A stretch of DNA of 64,000 bases. It comes from an uncultured Chloroflexia bacterium. Lineage in GTDB: Bacteria > Chloroflexota > Limnocylindria > Limnocylindrales > CSP1-4. Positions 14,458 through 56,954 of the stretch are shown piece after piece. The notes below the pieces were generated by a model. The model saw only the letters and a list, made by a program, of their open reading frames with translations, was not told where the DNA came from and searched no databases. Position numbers and translations under genes: made by a program. The stretch spans positions 1,248,001 through 1,312,000 of the forward strand of contig OY970218.1 of the NCBI GenBank assembly GCA_963713975.1, given 5' to 3'. The stretch's first letter is position 1, and every line of letters starts with the position of its first letter.

Positions 14458-16107
14458 TCATGGTCTCGCAGTGCCATGTACCGAGGCCTCGCGGATCAAG
14501 TCAGCCTCCGCCTGCTCGTCGGACAGGGGCTCGTAGGCCATCGCCTTGCAATACTCGTCGAAGCTCCAGCGGGCGAAGCTCGCGGCGAGGTAAGGGAACT
14601 GCTCGCTCGACTCCTCTGCGTACTCGGTGCGCGGGATCGCGTGCTGGTCGTGCAGCGGGTGGCGACAGCGCACGACGACGTAGTCCCCCAGAGCCGCCCA
14701 GTCGCCGTGCAGCGCGGAGCCCGCCGGGATCATGACCGAGTGGTACATGTCCTCCAGCCCAACCTCACGCGACATGTCAAGAAGTCCCTTGTCAGCGGCA
14801 AAGGTGCCCGCGGTGCTGATGTCCTGGAAGTCCTCGGAGACGCCGCGATTCACGTCCGCGCGCAGCTTCGGCAGGAGCCGCTCGAGGATCGCGTGCGGCT
14901 CCCCCTCGGTCCGACCGATAACCTCCTCCGTGTGGAGCATCAAGGCCTTGGTCCGCCCGCGACCGAAATTCTTGAACTCGTCCCAGATCGCCGGCCGCGA
15001 GCTCTCCACCGACAACATCCACTTCAGCTGCACGTAAGCTTCGAAGAGCGACCGGACGGACGGATAGCCGTGCTCCTCGGACCAGAGGGCCGGATGTGAC
15101 ACGAGATGGGCTGCGACCCTCAGAGCGCGCCAGACCACTCCCGTGAGGACGTCGTAGCGATCGTGGTTCCAGATGTCCGGGTCGATGTCGGCCGCCGCCC
15201 GCAGGAATTGGTAGTGCAGCCGGTACAGACGGGCAGCTCCCTGCGCGAGATGGTCCTGATCAGGGGGTGAAGCCTCGCCAGCCGGGACAGTGAGGCAGCG
15301 GAACAGGCGCCCGTTGGCGCGCCAGAACCGCTCGCACCACGCGCCGCCCGCTAGTGAGCCCTCGAGTTCTGCGGCCTGGAAGGAGAGGAACGACGCCCGG
15401 AGTGTCGTCTCGGCGAGCTTCCGCTCACCTTCGCTCACAGGGTTCTCGTAGTTGCGAAGCGCCTTGAAGCCGGGGTCGTCAGGGTGGAAGGAGATCCGCT
15501 GCGTCATGACCATGCCGCGGAGCCAAAGGTAGATGGCGTCGGTCGCGAGTTCCTGGTGCGAGTCGCCGCCGAGGCGCATCGTTTCCCAGAGGTGTTCCTC
15601 TGCTTCGACCAGGTCCGGCACGAGTCCGGCGTCGAAGTGGGGTTGGGCGAGCCATCGACCCGGCGCGTCGTCGTACGCGGCCAGGACGTGGGCGAGCGGC
15701 TCGGGCGAGATGGCGTCATAGATGCCAAGCCGCCTGAACTCGTCCACCAACTCGTTGCGCTCCCGGTCCGGGACACGCTCCCAGTCGGTCAGAAGGCCGT
15801 GGAAGACCGGCTCGCGGTCGCCGCCAAGCGCACCGCGTTCGTGGGCCCTATGGAAGGCGGCTTGCCCTGCATCCAGCGCCTGCGTCGTAGCGCCGCGGGC
15901 GAGGGGCCGGAGGCGAAGCATGGTCAGGAGCCACAGGAAGTCCGGAAAGGCAACCTTCCGGAATGGCCGCAAGGTGGGCGGGATCGGCAGATTGAGCATC
16001 GGCGGGACATGTCGCGTACCCAGCCGGTAGTGGCCGCGGAACGGAGACGGCCGGGATCCGCGATTCGACTTGCGCGAGTCCGCGTCCATCCCATCCATTT
16101 GGAACAT
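14458..16107 (-). CDS. DUF5677-like protein (start may be 15999)
   Basis: C-terminal RSLFEAYVQLKWM and Y...SALHGDW pattern; long ORF. Confidence 0.65.
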   Translation of the reverse strand: MFQMDGMDADSRKSNRGSRPSPFRGHYRLGTRHVPPMLNLPIPPTLRPFRKVAFPDFLWLLTMLRLRPLARGATTQALDAGQAAFHRAHERGALGGDREPVFHGLLTDWERVPDRERNELVDEFRRLGIYDAISPEPLAHVLAAYDDAPGRWLAQPHFDAGLVPDLVEAEEHLWETMRLGGDSHQELATDAIYLWLRGMVMTQRISFHPDDPGFKALRNYENPVSEGERKLAETTLRASFLSFQAAELEGSLAGGAWCERFWRANGRLFRCLTVPAGEASPPDQDHLAQGAARLYRLHYQFLRAAADIDPDIWNHDRYDVLTGVVWRALRVAAHLVSHPALWSEEHGYPSVRSLFEAYVQLKWMLSVESSRPAIWDEFKNFGRGRTKALMLHTEEVIGRTEGEPHAILERLLPKLRADVNRGVSEDFQDISTAGTFAADKGLLDMSREVGLEDMYHSVMIPAGSALHGDWAALGDYVVVRCRHPLHDQHAIPRTEYAEESSEQFPYLAASFARWSFDEYCKAMAYEPLSDEQAEADLIREASVHGTARP

Positions 16108-16409
16108 GATGCCGTACGGGCCACCAAGGGCGAACGCGGGTGCCAGAGATCAGCGCAGCCGTGGCAAGGACGGCCATTGGCTGCTTGACGACCGCGAACA
16201 GCATGCCAGTAGTGCCGACGCACGCGAGTGCTTTGACAATGATCCAGAGGTATCCGATCAGGACCTACTTGTCCGTTGCGGCGCATCGTCAATCCAGCGA
16301 GGGTGGGTCAGCGCGGGCTCGGGCAGGGGGCGTTCAACTCGTACACCCAGGGTGACCCGGTGAGGCTCGTTGGCCAAAGGTGCCCCTCGTCCATCGGGAC
16401 TCTGCAAGG

Positions 16410-16470
16410 GTACACAAACACGTACACATATAGCATTGACCATGCTGCAGACCGAGCGCATCGTGCCCTT
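16410..16470 (+). promoter_or_regulatory. Promoter of the structured leader/Ubl operon with GTACAC-N6-GTACAC
   Basis: GTACAC(16410)-N6-GTACAC-N8-TTGACC-N17-CATCGT-N6; predicted +1 at 16471. Confidence 0.65.
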
Positions 16471-17090
16471 GGGCGACTGAGGCCAGTGGATGCGTACCTG
16501 AGTGCTTCAGTCGCCCGCCACGTTCGATGGTCGAACGGGCAGCGGGCTCCCCGGCACGAGCTCCCACGGCGGTTGCCGTGACCAGGCCAGCGCCGGCGTC
16601 GGGATCCTCTGGGATCTGCGGCGACTGAAGCACCTTACCAACCACATAGCGCTGCCAATCGCGCGCTCTTCGATGCGTGCGATCGCGCGAGGCGTGCCCG
16701 CCACCAGGGCGTGGGCGGAGTCCGACCGGGGGTCGGTCGTCGCGAGGAATTCTCCTCGACGATCCGCAACTCGGTCGTGTTCCGTCCTCGTTGGGCGCGG
16801 CACGACCGGTTTCGGTTCGTTCGGGCGTTGCTCGTCGACGGCTCGTCGTTCCTGGTCGGGACTCTCTCTCACGTTCGGGTGGCGGACGACATCCGCGCCG
16901 GAATGGAGGTGATGCCCCGAAGGGGTTCGATGACGTCGGCGGCCTGCGCGCCCGCCGGTGTTCGCAACTGTTGCGCACCAAAGGACAGGGGCCGATCCTC
17001 GCCGATCGCATCAAGACGGCAGGACGCCGCGCCTGCCTTCGTCTGCCCCGGTCCGCTTGTCATGCGGCGTTCGTTCCACATGGAGGTTTC
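16471..17090 (+). ncRNA. Putative ~620-nt structured leader RNA or ssDNA structure; family not recognised
   Basis: No convincing ORF. About a dozen consecutive hairpins; competing 13-bp and 14-bp helices; the first helix starts at the predicted +1. Confidence 0.5.
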
Positions 17091-17093
17091 ACC

Positions 17094-17333
17094 GTGCAGA
17101 CGATGCAAGACGCCGAGACGACGAGGGTCGTGTACGGCGTCAACGAGCTCGAACTCGACCTGGCCGGCAAGACGGTCCACGGGATCTGGAAGGCCCTCGA
17201 ACAGGTCTTCAATATCCCGCGCGACGCGGTCATCACGGTCAACGGATCCCGGACCGACGACGAGTACGTCGTGCGCCCGGGCGACGAGATCGAATTCCAG
17301 AAGGCAGCCGGCGTGAAGGGCCAGGCGGTCTGA
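17094..17333 (+). CDS. Ubiquitin-like (beta-grasp, ThiS/MoaD-like) protein
   Basis: 79 aa after a GGAGG RBS; VITVNG, VVRPGDEIEFQKAAGVKG then QAV. Confidence 0.88.
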   Translation: MQTMQDAETTRVVYGVNELELDLAGKTVHGIWKALEQVFNIPRDAVITVNGSRTDDEYVVRPGDEIEFQKAAGVKGQAV

Positions 17334-17357
17334 CACGCGGGCTTCGGCCACACCTGC

Positions 17358-17409
17358 AGGGACTCCTGGGTCCGGCGACGCCCAAGCGGCGTGCCGGGCC
17401 CGGGGCCCT
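17358..17409 (+). other. Long G-U-rich stem-loop between the Ubl and E2 genes
   Basis: 13-bp stem with three G-U pairs plus inner and outer helices; preceded by a GGC-TTCG-GCC tetraloop. Confidence 0.6.
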
Positions 17410-17448
17410 TTGGGTCACCGAAACGCCTCAGAAAGGAGCTCACGCAAC

Positions 17449-18219
17449 ATGCAGTCGCGCACGTACCTGCGCATCGAAGGCGATCTGGTGAGCCTGATCA
17501 GCGAGGTCATCGACCGTGAGGTCGCGCTTCCGGATCTCCTGGCCGAGCTCACCACCAACCAAGTTCAGCTGAGCCCGAGGCTGCCAACCGGCTGCCGCTT
17601 CTGGTTCCGTGCCGGGTCGACGGGCCGTACGGTCTTCGTCACCGAGCAGGCCCCGATGCGGCGGACGATCGAGTACCAGACGAGCCGGCGACCGGCGGGC
17701 GAGCCGATCACGTATCGGATCGCCCTGCCGTACGTCGTGTTCGTGGTCTCGACCTATGGCGAGCAGATCGAGGGCCTCGCGACCTACTTCCGACCGGCGC
17801 CCCTGCGCTCGATCGACGATGGGCTGTGCTGCTCGACCCTGCCGAACACGGACGACGATGGGACCGTCTGTCTCGGCTCGGTCAGGGTCAGCGGCGCCAC
17901 CGTTGGCGAACGCGTGGACGCCCTCGTCGGTGCGTTCTGGGCGAGTCGCTTCAATCAGGACCTGCGACGCCATCCGCTCTCGTTCCCCGGTGGCTTCCGG
18001 GCCTGGGCGGCTCGTTCGCGACGGGATCCCCTCGCGGCCCTCTCGATGGCCTACGACCCCTATTGGCGGACCCTCCGCCAGGTCACAGCGCAGATGGCCG
18101 GCGTGGCTCCCACGGACCTGCCGGCGGTCACGCCGATCCCCAGCGAGGCGCCCGAGACCGACGTCCGGACGCCAGACCCGGTGGTCGAGGGAGGTGAGGC
18201 AGATGACCTCGCTGCCTGA
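17449..18219 (+). CDS. Prokaryotic E2-like protein (Prok-E2 family D / PRTRC protein B-like)
   Basis: IALPYVVF, LPNTDDDGTVCLG with putative catalytic Cys, FWASRFN; AAGGAG RBS. Confidence 0.8.
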   Translation: MQSRTYLRIEGDLVSLISEVIDREVALPDLLAELTTNQVQLSPRLPTGCRFWFRAGSTGRTVFVTEQAPMRRTIEYQTSRRPAGEPITYRIALPYVVFVVSTYGEQIEGLATYFRPAPLRSIDDGLCCSTLPNTDDDGTVCLGSVRVSGATVGERVDALVGAFWASRFNQDLRRHPLSFPGGFRAWAARSRRDPLAALSMAYDPYWRTLRQVTAQMAGVAPTDLPAVTPIPSEAPETDVRTPDPVVEGGEADDLAA

Positions 18220-18467: not shown

Positions 18468-19301
18468 ATGTTCCCGATCCTTCCTGCGGGCTCACCGGCG
18501 GCGGCCGACACCTCGCTGCCGGCCTTCCTCGTCGCCCATGACGGGCTGTATCTGCGCAAGCGGAGCCTGCTCGGTGTGAGCCAGACGAGGGTCAATGGGG
18601 CCGAGCATCTGCCCCCTGCGACGGAGTACGTCGAGTACGCGCTGCCGAGGATCTCAGCGGACCAGATGGCCCGCGTCGTCGGCTTCTTCCGCTCCATCTA
18701 CCGGGCGCAGCGGACCGAGGCGCTCGTCCTCCTGCTCTGGGCGGGCGAGGGCTTCGAGCTGTTCGTCCCGGACCAGAAGGTGAGCCCCGCCTCGGTGAGC
18801 CACACGCTCGACGCGGCGAGACTGCCGGCCGGATCCCGCGTCGTCGGGTCGATCCACTCTCACGGTGCCTTCGGCGCCCCGGCGAGTGCGATCGACGAAG
18901 ACGACGAGGCGGAGTTCGACGGGCTGCACATCGTCGTCGGGCGCTTCGATCGGCGTCCGTCCTATTCGGCGGCCATCGCCGTCGACGGACGCCGCTTCCG
19001 TATTCCAGTGGCCGATGTCCTGGAACGGCCCCGGAGGCTCGTCGAGCCGCCGGAGGAGTGGTGTCAGCGAGTGACACTCCTGCCGCCGCCGCGGCCGTCG
19101 AAGGACAAGGGCCACCGACCCTCGTCCACCGGCGCTCCGGTGCCGCTCCCTCATCGAGGGGCCCACCGGGTCAGCCGCGTCGATCTCGACGTGGCGCTCG
19201 CCCGGGCGGATGGCCTGGCCTCACAGCTTGGGCTCCACCTCAGCTTCTCGCTCGCCCCGGTCTCCGGGTCGGGTCGGAAGGTGGGTGGCGCCGATGCCTG
19301 A
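18468..19301 (+). CDS. JAB/JAMM (MPN) metallo-isopeptidase
   Basis: TEAL...GSIHSHGAFGAPASAID matches E-xn-HSH-x7-S-x2-D. Confidence 0.9.
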   Translation: MFPILPAGSPAAADTSLPAFLVAHDGLYLRKRSLLGVSQTRVNGAEHLPPATEYVEYALPRISADQMARVVGFFRSIYRAQRTEALVLLLWAGEGFELFVPDQKVSPASVSHTLDAARLPAGSRVVGSIHSHGAFGAPASAIDEDDEAEFDGLHIVVGRFDRRPSYSAAIAVDGRRFRIPVADVLERPRRLVEPPEEWCQRVTLLPPPRPSKDKGHRPSSTGAPVPLPHRGAHRVSRVDLDVALARADGLASQLGLHLSFSLAPVSGSGRKVGGADA

Positions 19302-19995
19302 CCGGGTCGTGCTCATCGGCCTCGGCGGCATCGGGAGCCAGCTCGCACCCTCGCTCGTCCGATACCTCTCATTCCGCCCGGAGCCGCGCCCGCTCCTGGT
19401 CCTCGTCGACGGTGACGCCTACGAGATCTCGAACCGGTCGCGGCAACTCTTCCCCGATGACGCCCTGGGCACGAACAAGGCCGAGGCCTTGGCCCAGGTG
19501 TTCCGCGGGGGTGGGCTTGCGGTCCAGGCGATCGCCGGGTACGTGAGCGCCGACAACGTCGGGCTCGTCGTCCGCGAAGGGGACGTCTGTCTCCTCGCGG
19601 TCGACAACCACCCGACGCGGGCGCTCGTCGACCGGCACATCGCCGCTCTTTCGGACGTGACGCTCATCAGCGGTGGCAACGACGAGACGGACGGCAACGT
19701 CCAGCTCGTCCGTCGCCGCGACGGGTACAGCGTCGATGGCCACCTGGTCGAGATCCACCCGGAGATCGGCCAGGCGGCAGGTGCAGACGTCATGCCGGGT
19801 ACCGGCTGTGCGGCCCTCGCGCCCATTCGGCCCCAGCTCGTCGTGACCAATCTGATGGTCGCAAGCGCGATGCTCAACTGCCTCTGGGCGGTCACCGAGC
19901 AGGGCAGCGTCCCCTACAGCGAGGTCTACCTCGACGTGGTCCATAACGCGGCGCGTAGCCGCAGCTGGCTCCGCGTCCAGGACGGCGCGCAGTAG
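19294..19995 (+). CDS. ThiF/E1-like adenylyltransferase
   Basis: IGLGGIGS, VDGD, SNRSRQ, NKAEAL, AVDN, GCAAL...QLVVTN; no Zn-binding CxxC pairs. Confidence 0.92.
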   Translation: MPDRVVLIGLGGIGSQLAPSLVRYLSFRPEPRPLLVLVDGDAYEISNRSRQLFPDDALGTNKAEALAQVFRGGGLAVQAIAGYVSADNVGLVVREGDVCLLAVDNHPTRALVDRHIAALSDVTLISGGNDETDGNVQLVRRRDGYSVDGHLVEIHPEIGQAAGADVMPGTGCAALAPIRPQLVVTNLMVASAMLNCLWAVTEQGSVPYSEVYLDVVHNAARSRSWLRVQDGAQ

Positions 19996-20239: not shown

Positions 20240-20764
20240 ATGACAGCGGCGACCATGTTCACGATCGGCTACCAGGGCTCGTCCCTAGAACACCTGATCG
20301 ACGCGCTCGCGGCCGCGGACGTCTCGGTGCTCGTGGACACCCGCGAGACGCCGATGAGCCGGCGGGCCGAGTTCCGACCCAAGATGCTCCAGGCGGCGCT
20401 CGCCGAGGCTGGCATTGAGTACCGCTCCATCCGAGCGCTCGGTGCGCCGAAGGCGCTGCGGGCTCTGGCGACGGACGACTGGGTCAGGTTCGCTGACGGC
20501 TACCGCGAGCGCCTACTCCTCGCCCGGGAAGAGCTCCATGACCTGGTGCCCCTGATCGAGACCGAGCGCGTCTGCCTGCTCTGCTTCGAGGCCGACCCCG
20601 AAGCCTGCCACCGGTCGCTGCTCGCCCATGAGATCCAGGGACTCCTGGACGAAGCCGCCGTCCATCACCTTCGGCCGGGGCGGCCGGACGAGGCCGATGA
20701 TCTCGAACGTGCGGCGCCGCTTGGCGAGGTTGCCAACCACGAAGTGCAGGTCGCGGGCCGGTAG
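20240..20764 (+). CDS. DUF488 family protein
   Basis: FTIGYQG, LVDTRETPMSR, CLLCFE, CHRS. Confidence 0.9.
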   Translation: MTAATMFTIGYQGSSLEHLIDALAAADVSVLVDTRETPMSRRAEFRPKMLQAALAEAGIEYRSIRALGAPKALRALATDDWVRFADGYRERLLLAREELHDLVPLIETERVCLLCFEADPEACHRSLLAHEIQGLLDEAAVHHLRPGRPDEADDLERAAPLGEVANHEVQVAGR

Positions 20765-21448
20765 CTCGATCTCGTACCGCTCGCGAAGCTTCTCCTCCCA
20801 GCGGTCACCGTACTCGCGCACCCACCGGCGGTACGACTCGCCGATCTCCCAGTCGAGGATCCCGATCTCGTGGCCACGACAGCGGTCGTCGTTGCAGGTG
20901 AACTCGTAGGCGAACGACCACGGGATCTGCTCGAGGTCGGCGAGCTCGGCCAGCTCGGTCTCGCCCAGGCCAAGGCGTTGCTGGAGCAGCGCCGCGCGCT
21001 GGCGCTCACTCCACGGCTTCGCCTTCCGCTTCACGAGACGCGTGATCTCCTTTGGCCGGAACATGCCGAGGCTGGTCCCGTCTCGGCGCTGCGCTTCCTG
21101 GATCGCCTCGAGCGAGCGTGCCGGGGGCGGCAGCAGGGCCATCCGCCTTCGCCAGCCGCGGTCGCCAGCGGGCATCGGCCCGTCGAGGAGTGCGATCGTG
21201 TCTTGGTCGACATGGAGGCTCTCCGGGCGGTTGTCGCCGCGGGGTCGGCCGACGACACAGGTGATGACCTGGTACTTCGCGAACCTCTTGTCCGCGAGCC
21301 GGCGGAATGTGACCGGGTACATCCGCACCCACGACCGGGAGTCGAGGTCGACGCCAGCGCAGCAGACGGTCTCGACGTACGACTGGCTGGGGTTGGGATA
21401 CGTCTTGACAACGACCAGGATCCGCCGCTTCGGTGCCCCTGGAATCAC
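20513..21448 (-). CDS. Conserved hypothetical protein (KTYP...ETVCxAG family, possibly OB-fold)
   Basis: VKTYPNPS..YVETVCCAG, WVRMYP, DNRPES, LDWEIG, FEIIGL; AGGAGG RBS before GTG 21448. Confidence 0.78.
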   Translation of the reverse strand: MIPGAPKRRILVVVKTYPNPSQSYVETVCCAGVDLDSRSWVRMYPVTFRRLADKRFAKYQVITCVVGRPRGDNRPESLHVDQDTIALLDGPMPAGDRGWRRRMALLPPPARSLEAIQEAQRRDGTSLGMFRPKEITRLVKRKAKPWSERQRAALLQQRLGLGETELAELADLEQIPWSFAYEFTCNDDRCRGHEIGILDWEIGESYRRWVREYGDRWEEKLRERYEIELPARDLHFVVGNLAKRRRTFEIIGLVRPPRPKVMDGGFVQESLDLMGEQRPVAGFGVGLEAEQADALGLDQGHQVMELFPGEE

Positions 21449-22143
21449 GCCCACCTCCTATCGACGGTGCGAGCCACCATGGGCTCCAGAGTAGGGCCGC
21501 CGGCGGCCGCTCTGCCTCGAGATCGATCCAGCGAGCACCTTCGCTCGGAACTGGTCGTCGCGTCGAAGACGCTTGATGAAGCAACGGCCGCGACGTGCTC
21601 GGCAAGTTGCCGCCGTCGATCCGCCAGGATGGCGTCCGCCTGAGCTGATCCAGCCTGGGGATCGTCGCGCAGATGTACAGGCACAGGCGCGAACATGCGA
21701 TCCATGATCAGCCCGCCGCGCTCGGCGTCCGCTCCTGACGCCGGCCCATTGTGCTCCTCGGCCATGCTGAAGTTGGACGCGCCCGCAGGTGCTGCGCAGG
21801 TTCTCCATCGCAGTGGAATCTCCTGCGATGTGGTCGATTTCGGGCGCGGGATCTCCGCAGATCACGCACCTGTGCTCGTCCCGGCTGAAGACCTGTTCCC
21901 GGATCGTTGCAGGCCCCGGCGCTGGGTCTCGTGGTAGCCGCCGGCGAGGATGTGGGCGAGCCTCCTCCGCCAGGCATCCTCGATCCTCGGATCCGCTAGC
22001 CAGCGGCCGTCGGCGATGGTGGCGCGCGCATAGCGAATCAGCTTGACCGTCTGGCGGCACGCGGGCGAGCAGTAGAGCTTGGCCCGGCCCGTGAGCTCGA
22101 TCGGCGCACCGCACTCGACGCACTCGACGACGACCGGTCGCAT
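21445..22143 (-). pseudogene. Frameshifted zinc-binding HNH endonuclease
   Basis: Split over three frames: CVECG...YCSPAC, then VFSRDEHRCVICG...EIDHI...ENLRSTC, then a C-terminal piece. Confidence 0.7.
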
Positions 22144-24858: not shown

Positions 24859-25843
24859 GTCCCTCCTCTGCTCACCCTGGGTTGTCTCAGCAACCCCCAG
24901 CGTGCGTGGGGAGGGACGCTTGATGTTCACGGTGTCCGTGAGGGGACCGTGGGGCGGGCTGTCCAGATCGCGTGGCCGGCGGCGTTCAGATCTCGTGGCC
25001 GCCGGCGTCCAGCTTCCTGTCCGCCTGCGTCCAGATTCCCATGGCCGCTGTCACCCCCGGCCACCGTCGGTCGAGATCCCGAGCGCGATCCAGCTGTGGG
25101 ACCGAGCTCTCGATTGGATGTACACGAATACGTACGCGCCCCGAAGGGGCCGCTGAGCCTCGTCTTCCCCGGCAACTCCTAGTCACAACCTATTCAATCT
25201 CCAGGAGATTCATCTGGGGGGCTACAGGGAACGCCGCAGCCTCTCGCGGTAGCTGGTGCTCGACCGGGCCCACAGGGACAACGGCGAGCCACTCGGTCAC
25301 AGGCTGTAGCTGGGTCAGGGCGGCCAGGACGCGGTGCAAGTCGTAGGTCCGGCCTGCCGACCGCGGGCGCCGCGGTCACCGGAAGCTCCCGATGACACGA
25401 GGCTTGGGCGGCGGGGGTGGTTCGAGCATGGCCATGGCGATCGCGCGGACCATCGCGCCCGCCGCGGTGTTCAGTTCGACCCGCGACGAGCCGGCACCTG
25501 TCTGTGCGCGACCGTTGGGGTCAACTTCCTCGTCACGCCGGCGACGCTCCTGCACGCGCGGATTGGCGCGGTCAGCGGTATGGGGCCGTCGGTCGTGAAC
25601 GCCGTGGCTCCGTCAGCATCCGCGTGACGGCTCGGGCCGAGCGCTGGGGGCAAGGTCCCCGCCGCTGCGGACGGAAGCGCATGCGCTTCCCGATCGGGGA
25701 CCCGTCGGAGCGTGGGCAACCGACGGCGCACCTGCTCTGGGAGCTGGCGGCCCCGTGCGGGCAGGGCCGCGACCCTGAGCGTTGGACGTCCAGCGGTGCG
25801 GGCGTCGACGATCGTGCGCTTCGGAGCACACGAGTGTCCTGCA

Positions 25844-53798: not shown

Positions 53799-53852
53799 GT
53801 ACACGAACCAGTACACATAGGCATGGACCCAGGAGAGTCCGGCAAGCATGCT
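53799..53852 (+). promoter_or_regulatory. Promoter of the ATPase/recombinase operon with GTACAC-N6-GTACAC
   Basis: GTACAC(53799)-N6-GTACAC-N7-TGGACC-N17-CATGCT. Confidence 0.6.
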
Positions 53853-53913
53853 GTTGAGGCATGGCCAAGCGCTGGCCGTCTCCGGTGCCCGGCACGTGAG
53901 CTTGTTACAGGAC

Positions 53914-55068
53914 TTGAAACAATTGTCACAAACGCGATCGACGAACCCATTCCGACCCGGCAGCGGGATCCTCCCGCCGCTCCTGGCCGGGCGCGACCGC
54001 GAGACGGCCATCCTCGACGCGCGCGTCGCGCGGACCCGCCAGGGTCAGCCGCAACACACCGCGCTGCTCGGCGAATGGGCGATCGGCAAGACGACGTTGC
54101 TGATGCACTGGCGTCGACTTCGGCAACAGGCCGGCGACGTCGTCGTCCTCTCGATGGCCTACCCGCAGCCCGCCGAGGACTTCCTCGCCGGCCTGGTCAC
54201 GACGATCGAAGCTGAGCTGTCGACGGATTGGGGTCGGCGCGTGGAGGTGGAGATCGGGCTCGACATCGGTATCGCCGATGCTCGTGTCCGGCGGCCGTCA
54301 CGTGATCCGGAGCGCGACCTTCGCGCGGCCCTCCGACGCCTCGTCGAGCGTCGGGCAGGCGAGGAGCGGTCTGTCGTCGTCCTCCTCGACGATGTCGACC
54401 TGCTTCCCGACACCGGGGATGCGCTCCTGCGCCTGCGAGCATGTGCCCTCGAGCTGTACGCCGCCGACCTGCCTCTGGCATTCGTCATCGCCGCGTCGCC
54501 AGGTCTGTTCACGGAGGTTCGATCGGCTCATGAGCCGCTGGTTCGGTTCTTCGAGCCGCTGTCCGTCGGTCCGCTCGACGACACGGACACAGCTCGAGCC
54601 CTGACCGAGCCCCTCGGTGAGACGACCGTCCGTTTCGACGCTGATGTGGTCGCCGAGATCGTGGACCTTGCCGGCGGCCGACCGTACTACGTGCAGAAGC
54701 TCGGCTACTACGCGTTCGACGCCGCGGCCAATGGTCGGGTCACACGGGCAGAGTTCGCGGTCGCCTTCGAGCGCGCGTTCGCTTCGGTGAGCCAGGAGAT
54801 CTTCGCTGGGCGCTGGGCGAGGATGTCGCCGATCGACCGCCAGGTCGTGGCCGTCGTCGCCCGAAGCACCGAGCCGCGCTCCTCGGGCGACATCGAAGCC
54901 GAGGCGGCACGACGCGGAGTGAGGCCGGGAGCGGCCCGACAATCGCTGCGGCGTCTTGCCTCGAAGGGCCAGATCGACCGGCTCACCAACGGGCATCGAG
55001 GTCGTTACGCGGTTCGGGATCGGCTCTTCCGGCGGTACCTGGAACTGCAGGCTGGGACGACGTCTTGA
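53914..55068 (+). CDS. AAA/STAND-like ATPase with C-terminal winged helix (start uncertain, 53848-53923)
   Basis: NPFRPGSG..PP.LAGRDRE, GEWAIGKT, LLDDVD, GGRPYYVQ, C-terminal HTH-wing. Confidence 0.85.
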   Translation: MKQLSQTRSTNPFRPGSGILPPLLAGRDRETAILDARVARTRQGQPQHTALLGEWAIGKTTLLMHWRRLRQQAGDVVVLSMAYPQPAEDFLAGLVTTIEAELSTDWGRRVEVEIGLDIGIADARVRRPSRDPERDLRAALRRLVERRAGEERSVVVLLDDVDLLPDTGDALLRLRACALELYAADLPLAFVIAASPGLFTEVRSAHEPLVRFFEPLSVGPLDDTDTARALTEPLGETTVRFDADVVAEIVDLAGGRPYYVQKLGYYAFDAAANGRVTRAEFAVAFERAFASVSQEIFAGRWARMSPIDRQVVAVVARSTEPRSSGDIEAEAARRGVRPGAARQSLRRLASKGQIDRLTNGHRGRYAVRDRLFRRYLELQAGTTS

Positions 55069-55430
55069 CCACGAGCCAGCGCGTGGCCAACCGTCGCGCT
55101 CGCCCCGTGCCGCCGGATCAAGCCTCGGATGAGCGCACGTGGTCGAGGTCGCGTCGCCAGATCCGAGTGGTTCCATCGGCTGGGCACGCGGTGGCGAGCG
55201 GACGCAGCCGAGACCCGGTCAGGCGCGGAACCCGGAGCGCTCAGGGCCAACGGCTGCCTCGTGAACAGAACATCGTCGTCCTTGCGCTAGCACGCCTCGT
55301 TCGCGAAGCGATCGAAGCCGACGAGAGCGTCGACATGGGCGAGCCAGGGCCAGGGCGTAGAATCCCGGGTCCGGCCCACGATAACCGGGTCGCGCAGAGG
55401 CTCTTCGATGCGACTGACACGGCCCCGTAG
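55065..55430 (+). CDS. Hypothetical protein between the ATPase and the recombinase
   Basis: Overlaps both neighbours; helix VVLALARLVREAI; no family recognised. Confidence 0.35.
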   Translation: MTTSQRVANRRARPVPPDQASDERTWSRSRRQIRVVPSAGHAVASGRSRDPVRRGTRSAQGQRLPREQNIVVLALARLVREAIEADESVDMGEPGPGRRIPGPAHDNRVAQRLFDATDTAP

Positions 55431-56943
55431 GCTCCCTTCCTCCCTGGATGACCTCCGCGGTCTTCGGGCCGCCCGATGGGTGCGCGAGTCGACAGAGGGT
55501 CAGTACGACCGCTACGGGCCGGAATCGCAGCACGAGCAGATGGATCGGTTCGTCGAGCGCTACGGCCTCGTGGACACGAAGATCGCGTACTCGGTCGCGC
55601 AGAGCGGTCGCACCGTCTGGCGTTCCAGCACCATGGCGGACATGCTGGCCGCGGCAACGGCCGGGTCGTTCGACGTCCTCCTGACCGGCTACTTCGATCG
55701 GTGGCAGCGCAACCTGCGACGCACCCTCGAGCTCGTCGAGGACCGCCTCCATCCGTCTGGTGTTGCCTGGGTCATGTGCGATCGACGGCTGATGAGCTCG
55801 GATCCACGAGACTGGGACCAGATGGTGACCGAGGCGCACGAAGCCGAGCGGTACAGCCGGCGCCTCGGGGAGCGGATCACGGACGGGTACGCCGCGAAGT
55901 TCCGGCGTCTCGCCGATCCGGGCGGCCGCGCCCCCCTCGGATTTGTGCGGGTCCCCCCGGCATTCGTGCTGGCCATCGACCCGGACGCCATTGATGCGGC
56001 CGTGCGGATCTTCGAGCGGTATGCAGTCGGCACCCTATCGATCGAGGAGGTTTCCAGCGAGTTTGGCCTGAACGATCGGCGCGTCACCGAGATGCTGAAG
56101 AACCCGATCTACAACGGCTGGGTCGGGCGAAAGGGCGAGCGGACGCCAGCGCCTTGGCGAGCCACGCCACCGGTGTCGGACGAGTTGTGGGAGCGGGTCG
56201 CGACGCTGCGAGCCAGCCGGGCTCGTCACGGCGGCAGTCGTCCCCCGGTCCGGATCGACCTGCTGCGCGGTCTCCTCTACTGCGTCTGCGGTCAGCGGAT
56301 CCGCACCGACGGGACGATGGGGACTCCACCCCGGCAGCGGAAGCTCCATCCCAGGCACGATCAGTGCCCAGAGTGGGGTCCGAAGGCGAGCCACTCGTCC
56401 GGCGTCTATGAGCCGTGGGTCATCGGCCAGGTGACCGGGATCCGGGTCGACGAGTCGACTCTCGAACGAATCGTCCGGGTCCTGTCGACGCCGCAGACGC
56501 GACCCATCGACGTCAACCGGGCCCGTCTCGAACGGATGAAGCGCGACCTCGCGCTTGACCATGCCGCAGGCCGACTCGACGACAAGACCTACCTGGCGCA
56601 GATCGCCGTGCTGCGCGATGAAGCAACGGCGATCGACTCCGGCAAGCGTCAGGGCACGGGCATCGCGCCGGACCAGGTGGTCGCCAGGTTGCGGGCGCTA
56701 CCCGGGACCTGGGCCAGGGCGACTCCGGAGGGCAGGGCCGAGCTGCTGCACTCGATCTATGAACGGATCGTCGTTCGCGGCACGGAGTTCGTCGGCGCTC
56801 GACTCACGCCCGAGGCGTACTCGCTGGGCCTCGCGCTCGCGCTGCCCGAGCGCGTTCAGCCGGCGCAGGAGTGGGTACTGGCGCGCCCGACAGGATTCGA
56901 ACCTGCGACCTTCGGCTCCGGAGGCCGACGCTCTATCCACTGA
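55408..56943 (+). CDS. Large serine recombinase (integrase)
   Basis: RWVRESTEGQ (catalytic Ser), SG, DRWQRN, MLKNPIYNG, LLRGLLYCVCG zinc-ribbon start; adjacent to a tRNA. Confidence 0.93.
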   Translation: MRLTRPRRLPSSLDDLRGLRAARWVRESTEGQYDRYGPESQHEQMDRFVERYGLVDTKIAYSVAQSGRTVWRSSTMADMLAAATAGSFDVLLTGYFDRWQRNLRRTLELVEDRLHPSGVAWVMCDRRLMSSDPRDWDQMVTEAHEAERYSRRLGERITDGYAAKFRRLADPGGRAPLGFVRVPPAFVLAIDPDAIDAAVRIFERYAVGTLSIEEVSSEFGLNDRRVTEMLKNPIYNGWVGRKGERTPAPWRATPPVSDELWERVATLRASRARHGGSRPPVRIDLLRGLLYCVCGQRIRTDGTMGTPPRQRKLHPRHDQCPEWGPKASHSSGVYEPWVIGQVTGIRVDESTLERIVRVLSTPQTRPIDVNRARLERMKRDLALDHAAGRLDDKTYLAQIAVLRDEATAIDSGKRQGTGIAPDQVVARLRALPGTWARATPEGRAELLHSIYERIVVRGTEFVGARLTPEAYSLGLALALPERVQPAQEWVLARPTGFEPATFGSGGRRSIH

Positions 56944-56954
56944 GCTACAGGCGC
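56879..56954 (-). tRNA. tRNA-Arg (anticodon CCG)
   Basis: Full cloverleaf: GCGCCTG acceptor stem, TCGGC-CTCCGGA-GCCGA anticodon arm, GGTTCGAATCC, encoded CCA. Confidence 0.97.

Follow-up and report, generated by a model that had tools for sequence, protein, structure and literature searches.

A large, conserved and structured leader upstream of a ubiquitin-like conjugation operon on mobile elements of Chloroflexota

Few conserved bacterial RNAs exceed 500 nucleotides (nt), and every class found to date has led to unexpected biology. Two of them, GOLLD and ROOL, are associated with mobile DNA, and the HEARO or omega RNA of IscB, a large RNA directly upstream of its protein gene, was initially taken for a 5' element before it proved to be the RNA partner of that protein. 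Mobile elements also carry single-strand origins and Frpo, which are strand-specific folded non-coding DNAs that lie near relaxase or replication genes. The STAB-SD motif that Agaisse and Lereclus reportedly described in 1996 is an mRNA stabiliser. OLE is ~600 nt long with an intricate structure (PMC9723947), and a 5'-terminal hairpin combined with a ribosome-docking element resembling a Shine-Dalgarno (SD) sequence stabilises long leaders in Bacillus messages (PMC5737220). Here we analyze a 64,000-nt stretch of DNA from an uncultured Chloroflexia bacterium (contig OY970218.1, positions 1,248,001 to 1,312,000; hereafter the window), in which positions 16471-17093 of the plus strand directly precede an operon coding for a ubiquitin-like protein (Ubl), an E2-like protein, a JAB peptidase and an E1/ThiF-type protein. 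This region is non-coding, conserved and folded, and we read it, with about even confidence, as the 5' part of the Ubl operon mRNA and as a new ~620-nt multi-helix leader that would act in cis to set message stability and translation.

Like OLE, GOLLD and ROOL, the leader is ~600 nt or more in length, has many helices set amid highly conserved nucleotides and occupies a narrow taxonomic range. Unlike them, it runs on into an mRNA, comes from Chloroflexota, accompanies a Ubl cassette and has no match in Rfam. The likeness to HEARO/omega RNA is one of description, beyond Rfam: in both cases a large structured RNA is strictly linked to a protein gene of a mobile element, but here there is no nuclease gene and again no Rfam match. 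With STAB-SD the leader shares an invariant SD-like 9-nt complement of 16S rRNA that lies in the 5' untranslated region and starts no conserved ORF, and its host has RNase J. However, STAB-SD is a short motif, whereas the 9-mer is embedded in ~600 nt of conserved structure where a stabilising effect is putative. Riboswitches and T-boxes resemble it as conserved co-varying 5' leaders, in cis to an operon, with SD-like or anti-SD-like elements, but the leader is three to six times larger, has no Rfam match and showed neither a terminator nor a clearly conserved SD-sequestering helix. Finally, in contrast to single-strand origins and Frpo, it has an ordinary duplex promoter outside the fold, is longer and multi-domain, and is found in RNA libraries.

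Searching all 4227 models of Rfam 15 (including OLE, GOLLD, ROOL, HEARO, raiA, riboswitches, T-box and ribozymes) gave no family match. Between 15500 and 18500 at E<=10 there were only five chance-level matches to microRNA or snoRNA models (17.7-20.3 bits), a gathering-threshold scan of the window and five homologous loci found no match in any leader, and ARAGORN found no tRNA or tmRNA gene in 16300-17200. The operon itself comprises Ubl (ThiS-like, 17094-17333, Pfam ThiS), the E2-like gene (17410-18219, Pfam Prok-E2_D), the JAB peptidase gene (18468-19301, Pfam Prok-JAB) and the E1/ThiF-type gene (19210-19995, Pfam ThiF), all on the plus strand. The same four-part Ubl/JAB/E1/E2 composition is seen in the row 6d operons of Iyer, Burroughs and Aravind 2006 (PMC1779556) and in type II Bil (PMC11601603). 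Against type II Bil, PADLOC matches E1 only, to BilD (3.6e-8), and matches to the PRTRC models of NCBIfam are all sub-threshold (PRTRC_A 21.8/101.8, PRTRC_B 24/131.45 and PRTRC_ThiF 47.7/144.75 bits). A literature search, based on the available parts of papers and with supplementary operon catalogues (e.g. Table S1 of PMC11601603) outside its coverage, brought up no description of an RNA component or leader for operons of the Ubl, Bil, Bub or PRTRC kind.

Conservation, folding and covariation of the leader

The leader lies in a 986-nt intergenic gap between a DUF5677 gene on the minus strand and the Ubl operon on the plus strand. When this gap was compared by BLAST with 61 related genomes, only the segment from ~16400 to 17093 was matched, with nothing further upstream; the matches came from six other genomes, one of which has multiple copies, and were 68-87% identical; in each of these relatives Ubl is the next gene. 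A scan for Ubl across 185,579 species genomes gave 45 loci, of which 40 have the leader directly upstream, and in the remaining five the Ubl lies at a contig edge with no upstream DNA on the contig. The gene order Ubl-E2-JAB-E1 is found in all 45 loci as far as the DNA extends, and the related loci come from metagenome-assembled genomes (MAGs) labelled Chloroflexota, Chloroflexia, Limnocylindrales or Anaerolineaceae. Scanning metagenomes with an invariant 21-mer of the leader gave 61 loci, 55 of them with the leader; the six others are ordinary ribosome-binding sites rather than leader copies. Where the 3' part of the leader and at least 250 nt of downstream DNA were present in these metagenome loci, Ubl was adjacent in 40 of 43, with a frameshift in two of the 40 (L086, L105) and a truncation after ~24 residues in a third (L106). 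A scan of viral contigs for the 21-mer gave no match. The leader is near-exclusively linked to the Ubl-E2-JAB-E1 cassette, and the exceptions are decayed copies.

More distant copies were collected with a covariance model, R1, which represents positions 16866-16996. The genome that contains the window has a single R1 copy. Across a sample of 151 genomes from the phylum, R1 detected seven true copies, all in one class, and among 151 genomes of that class it found ten with a copy followed by Ubl and E2, together with weaker matches without Ubl. The R1 matches at or below 29.4 bits (12 loci: L142, L146-L156) have no Ubl nearby and were taken as false positives. Four of the copies in this class come from another family, and the three that were analyzed at full length (L138-L140) are 51% identical to the window and have the same layout from operator to Ubl. 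Near full-length leaders amount to 68 unique sequences with 59-89% nt identity to the window, plus three divergent ones.

Some copies are rearranged, multiplied or unexpectedly placed. The decayed copies without Ubl (L112, L113 and L115, plus the partial leader L081) are deletion or rearrangement remnants: in L112, L113 and L081 Ubl, E2 and JAB are deleted and the leader runs straight into the C-terminal part of E1, and in L115 another sequence takes the place of the leader's 3' end. A single genome can carry as many as four diverged copies of leader plus cassette (L038/L041/L045/L049 in one MAG and L032/L054/L057/L058 in another), and genome G036 has four to five matches. Two copies, L030 and L071, are in MAGs whose labels lie outside Chloroflexota (Legionella and Acidimicrobiia bins), and L030, on a short contig of 1.9 kb, may be mis-binned.

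Positions 16471-17093 are non-coding. Column diversity by phase in 37 leaders is 0.316/0.308/0.306, compared with 0.096/0.080/0.214 at the Ubl codon positions of the same loci, and 142 of the 184 distinct gap runs in the leader alignment are not divisible by three. No open reading frame (ORF) of the leader matches Pfam, and the third-position GC of the Ubl frame drops to background 5' of 17094. Seven leader ORFs used as tblastn queries matched relatives in all six frames at ~35-50% amino acid identity, compared with 70-86% for Ubl. An ATG within the invariant GGAGGTGATG was considered as the start of an upstream ORF or of an extended Ubl and was ruled out by its unfixed frame (distance to Ubl modulo 3 of 10/7/7 over 24 leaders) and by early stops (after 2-18 codons in eight).

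The leader also folds better than expected. Its predicted minimum free energy (MFE) is -331.1 kcal/mol, compared with -298.5 +/- 7.7 for 100 dinucleotide shuffles, none of which was as low (z -4.26); a separate run with 20 shuffles gave z -3.86. Relative to 100 native 623-nt tiles of the window, which has a GC content of 69%, the GC-corrected residual is -3.1 sd with one tile lower. The reverse strand folds well too (z -4.32), so energy alone does not identify the strand. However, G-U pairs far outnumber A-C combinations in the alignments (382 vs 45, and 1231 vs 352 in the set of 68 sequences), which assigns the structure to the sense strand, that of the operon.

We assessed covariation with RNAalifold on 37 leaders, with a 68-sequence consensus and, for the 5' domain, with 71 sequences. 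The 37 sequences give 104 predicted pairs that are 95.7% paired, with both sides changed in 29 pairs (174 cells) as compared with 20.3 ± 2.1 pairs (65 ± 6 cells) in shuffled controls (0/500) and 11-43 double-changed cells when the partners were slid. Similarly, the 5' domain has 43 pairs that are 90% paired, with 223 double-changed cells vs 85 ± 9 in shuffled controls (0/500) and 35-86 with slid partners. The 68-sequence consensus was also applied to the held-out divergent leaders L138-L140, where 71% of its pairs form vs 38-44% with shifted partners. The helices thus retain pairing through compensatory changes above both the shuffled and the slid controls. A brute-force helix scan and mutual information with average product correction were used for single pairs only, because GC-rich chance pairings and a split into two clades dominate them. 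A long-range helix proposed by RNAalifold (16472-16476/16832-16836) proved spurious, as it came from misaligned copies of the first helix and is absent with 68 and 71 sequences.

The 5' domain is a series of local hairpins. The first, P1 (16471-16516; consensus 16472-16482/16505-16515), forms in 37/37 leaders of the smaller set and in 68/68 of the larger one, where it has a cognate duplex energy of -32.7 +/- 3.4 kcal/mol from 64 different 5' arms. Compensatory pairs occur at six of its ten positions, its basal 7 bp are 92.8% paired with five double-change positions, and 29/30 of its pairs are kept in the held-out family. P2 (16517-16540, CGTTCGA-TGG-TCGAACG) shows exchanges of CG with UA and of AU with CG (held-out 18/21), and P3 (16542-16564, GGGGCTC/GAGCTCC) is 93% paired with double changes at six of seven positions (held-out 20/21). 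P4 (16565-16580, CACGGC-GGTT-GCCGTG) is 98.8% paired with three double-change positions (held-out 18/18), and P5 (16597-16623, CGTC..GATCC-TCTG-GGATC..GGCG) has 10 bp that are 91.9% paired with five such positions (held-out 28/30).

Further 3', the hairpin CGAGGA-ATTC-TCCTCG (16736-16764) has an almost invariant core that is 97.7% paired, and its flanking pairs vary (16736/16764 is GC43/AU24 and 16737/16762 is CG42/UA15). The long hairpin CGGTCGTG...CACGACCG (16770-16810) has 18 bp with seven compensatory positions among 68 sequences, but it is kept at only 32/50 in the held-out family, and its outer part is therefore uncertain. A hairpin with the stem GGCGGAC/GTCCGC and an extension (16872-16905) has a core that is 99.1% paired, with an apical pair that is CG21/UA13/AU1 among 37 sequences and CG40/UA24 in the larger count. 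The small hairpin CCCC-GAA-GGGG (16914-16926) includes a pair that is UA21/CG11. It is followed at 16935-16986 by a CCGGCGG/CCGCCGG helix together with the hairpin GGTG..CGCAAC-T-GTTGCG-CACC, with four double-change positions (A2 667-679/696-708). An alternative long-range pairing, 16592-16596 with 16936-16940, is kept at 14/15 in the held-out family. Finally, the hairpin GGCAG..CTGCC (17018-17037) includes a pair that is GC50/UG11/UA5, and GCCGC in its loop is complementary to GCGGC at 17064-17068 (97.2% paired with two double-change positions; A2 columns 754-760/813-819). A pseudoknot here is possible in this model; the loop pairing is not kept in the divergent family.

Several blocks hardly vary at all. 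A near-invariant block GCACCTT..CAAC..CGCTGCCAATCGCGC spans 16630-16665, and the invariant CGCGCCGGAATGGAGGTGATG spans 16894-16914. CACCTT of the first block (16631-16636) can pair with GAGGTG (16906-16911), a pairing kept at 14/21 in the held-out family and one that lacks a covariation test because both sides are invariant. Within the second block, the most conserved one, lies the invariant GGAGGTGAT (16905-16913), which is the exact complement of the 3' tail of the host 16S rRNA, AUCACCUCC; in the divergent family this motif is replaced by another strong SD-like sequence.

These results bear on an initial annotation that was made from the sequence alone. It had described a 13-bp helix (16471-16483 with 16504-16516), which is present with one G-U pair, a 14-bp helix (16502-16515 with 16620-16633), which is present in the window with 100% complementarity, and a set of small hairpins, all of which we find (16520-16536, 16565-16580, 16603-16616, 16743-16758, 16772-16779/16801-16808, 16915-16925 and 16957-16980). 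Its suggestion of an unrecognised structured non-coding RNA is borne out by conservation, by covariation and by the Rfam/Infernal search, in which the leader matches no described family. It had also set out beforehand what would speak against such an RNA, namely folding no better than controls, a lack of conservation or covariation, or a conserved ORF; instead, the leader folds better than all 100 dinucleotide-shuffled controls, is conserved with covariation and contains no conserved ORF.

Promoter and operator

Conservation among relatives begins at a direct repeat, GTACAC-N6-GTACAC (16410-16427, repeats at 16410-16415 and 16422-16427), and continues through the -35 and then the -10 element. 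The initial annotation had proposed the promoter TTGACC-N17-CATCGT, and it is present on the plus strand (-35 at 16436-16441, a 17-nt spacer, -10 at 16459-16464) with its key bases invariant across the 68 leaders: T16436 in 68/68, T16437 in 65/68, A16460 in 68/68 and T16464 in 68/68, with an unconserved spacer. P1 starts 7-8 nt past the -10 element and 0-2 nt past the predicted +1, and the transcript would therefore begin with a hairpin. The gene upstream of the leader is variable and often divergent, which means that the leader needs a promoter of its own.

The repeats lie on the plus strand just 5' of the -35 element, and their TACAC cores are near-invariant in the 68 leaders (T67 A67 C68 A65 C58 and T67 A67 C68 A64 C57). 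In the host genome, a single 3.62-Mb contig, there are just two exact occurrences of the 18-mer pattern, both within the window; allowing one mismatch gives six sites in the window vs 0.33 expected. Given that the two exact sites also have the same layout, they suggest a shared regulator, which would define a regulon of the mobile element.

The second exact operator is at 53799 (region 53799-53857) with the same -35/-10 layout, and precedes an ORF (53848-55068) for an AAA_16/STAND-like ATPase with DUF7342; beyond this ORF are a large serine recombinase gene (55291-56943) and a tRNA gene on the minus strand (56882-56954). A copy of the operator with one mismatch lies at 25120-25137.

Competing explanations for the leader

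The explanation that we favor is a cis-acting leader. Transcription would proceed from the conserved promoter at a level set by whatever binds the GTACAC repeats, and the RNA would act in cis on its own message. The 5'-end hairpin, together with the invariant 9-nt complement of the 16S tail, which has no ORF attached, may protect this long message from 5'-end-dependent decay. The host encodes an RNase J homologue (591.9 bits, cut-off 400). SD-like and anti-SD-like elements are found in the 3' domain, which would adjust how accessible the ribosome-binding site of Ubl is (GGAGG at 17082-17086 with start codon GTG at 17094; 17082-17096, plus strand). If the RNA does control the operon, it would show how a protein-tagging system that may be costly is kept in check by mobile elements. 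Handles for experiments are provided by the alignment of ~70 sequences, the promoter and operator, the 5' hairpin, the 16S-complementary 9-mer and the CACCUU block.

RNA libraries are consistent with transcription of the leader into the operon. Thirteen RNA-labelled runs contain 12-22% of the sampled words of 16400-17400, and contigs from four metatranscriptomes (two from freshwater sediment, one each from soil and ice) match 16482-16746, 16531-16730, 16797-16958 and other parts at >=80% likeness. One 772-nt contig spans 16797 through Ubl into E2, to 17541. No contig of the four runs covers 16200-16481 and the whole contigs X1 and X3 end at 16482, which is at most a weak hint of a 5' end, given that contigs do not reveal true ends and that the two runs may stem from one campaign.

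A number of observations weigh against this explanation or its supports. The RNA contigs come from relatives, are assembled and unstranded, and may reflect DNA carry-over. A +1 near 16471, as originally proposed, is predicted from its place just 3' of the conserved promoter, and since a generic sigma-70 scan did not call the promoter, that call rests on comparative conservation. The covariation controls ignore phylogeny, and several mid-domain helices are weak in the held-out family (4/15, 11/22 and 3/12), which makes the global fold provisional. The last ~40 nt before the Ubl start, including the SD sequence, are the least conserved stretch of the leader, and the Ubl SD is only moderately paired in predictions (median probability of being unpaired 0.27 over 32 leaders), with an MFE partner that is mostly the equivalent of 17056-17061. 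A scan of 16100-17450 for intrinsic terminators found no site. Thus, with no terminator and with an SD that is poorly conserved and partly paired, a classical expression platform was not found. Finally, the stabiliser idea covers two features and not the remaining ~500 nt of conserved fold, and 620 nt with ~25 helices and long invariant stretches are far beyond the needs of a stabiliser or a simple translational switch.

In a second explanation, which we consider possible but rather unlikely, the RNA works together with the Ubl machinery and is more than a leader: it would be a stable non-coding RNA, a ribonucleoprotein scaffold or even a substrate, derived from the 5' end of the operon transcript. 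Other large ornate RNAs whose genes adjoin those of their partner proteins would provide a parallel. In its size, number of helices and long invariant single-stranded blocks the leader is closer to large ornate non-coding RNAs than to regulatory leaders. It is conserved like the proteins (59-89% nt identity, compared with ~53-78% amino acid identity for JAB across loci) and accompanies the cassette in two families of a class, and neither the terminator scan nor the SD pairing prediction revealed an expression platform. On the other hand, no terminator or conserved processing signal was found before Ubl, one RNA contig extends beyond the leader through Ubl and into E2, and Pfam shows no RNA-binding domain in the operon proteins. 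No free-standing copy was found either, as the copies without Ubl (L081, L112, L113 and L115) are all remnants. The more specific proposal that the RNA is a subunit of a bacterial Ubl conjugation system, serving as scaffold, specificity factor or substrate with Ubl, E2, JAB and E1, is a little more doubtful still. If true, a partner role would add RNA to bacterial Ubl pathways and provide the first ribonucleoprotein version of such a pathway. We rank the cis-acting leader above the RNA partner, and the three remaining explanations well below both.

The initial annotation had featured two mutually exclusive helices, in which 16502-16516 pairs either with 16471-16483 (P1) or with 16620-16633, as a conformational switch. 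Both helices do exist in the window, where they exclude each other and have near-equal predicted energies (-29.2/-30.7 kcal/mol), and a short GGCGRC/GYCGCC complementarity is general in the family. However, only 10/68 leaders can form the long alternative helix at -25 kcal/mol or below. On average, cognate arms (-20.6 kcal/mol) pair only modestly better than shuffled ones (-15.3) and no better than non-cognate arms (-19.2), and there is therefore no covariation. In addition, 16620-16623 pairs locally within P5, and this pairing is conserved and co-varies, while P1 forms in every leader. The long alternative helix, with its 3' arm at 16620-16633 (plus strand), is thus specific to the clade of the window rather than general to the family, and a switch is on this evidence improbable. 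A 12-mer common to both helices, GGCGACTGARGC, has 70 matches in the genome vs 72 for a reversed control, and is not a dispersed repeat or an operator.

Still less probable is that the element functions as single-stranded DNA, as a single-strand origin, an oriT-like site or a promoter of the Frpo type, which the initial annotation had also raised. A Replic_Relax gene and HerA/FtsK/TraG-like ATPase genes just upstream would suit this idea, as would the fact that both strands fold better than shuffles, and G-T wobbles are tolerated in single-stranded DNA too. Yet the fold starts right behind a conserved duplex promoter and ends at a ribosome-binding site. The -35 and -10 hexamers are upstream of the first helix and outside any hairpin, with an unconserved spacer, and instead of a single hairpin that mimics a promoter, the structure has more than 20 short helices along with long-range pairs. 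Metatranscriptomes moreover contain the region, joined to the coding region, and the DNA-level idea is disfavored.

Least probable of all is that the region hides a protein gene, intact or decayed, or extends Ubl at its N-terminus (ORF 16677-17333 shares the frame of the Ubl start), since the long ORFs that are open on both strands and the homologous loci that tblastn retrieves with them are outweighed by the low-identity matches in all six frames, the absent codon periodicity, the indels that are mostly not multiples of three, the fall in third-position GC, the lack of Pfam matches and the compensatory changes that maintain the helices.

Mobile-element setting of the cassette

Upstream of the intergenic gap are genes for HerA/FtsK/TraG-like ATPases and a Replic_Relax gene, and the context of the locus is therefore that of a mobile element. 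The leader RNA is tied to a Ubl conjugation cassette of putative function on mobile elements. Replic_Relax is found upstream in five of the 45 Ubl loci recovered from species genomes, and DUF5677 in none of them. In other copies, different and often divergent genes sit between Replic_Relax and the leader, and this position resembles a cargo hotspot.

Candidate defence genes flank the operon on both sides. On one side is the DUF5677 gene (14458-16107, minus strand), which PADLOC matches to DitA (5e-27), and on the other are the gene of a DUF488 protein (20240-20764, plus strand) and its convergent neighbor (20513-21454, minus strand), which PADLOC matches to PDC-M19A (1.8e-30) and PDC-M19B (2.7e-48), respectively.

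Two further observations concern the cassette and its surroundings. The C-terminus of Ubl (17326-17333 in the window, and in relatives) has a conserved AGVKG that is followed by one to three variable residues (QAV, LA or R), a pattern compatible with removal of the last residues, perhaps by the JAB peptidase, which would expose the glycine. Lastly, at a divergent-family locus (L138:593-693, plus strand) a SAM riboswitch (RF00162, 48.7 bits, gathering threshold 44.4) lies between Replic_Relax and the promoter of the leader.

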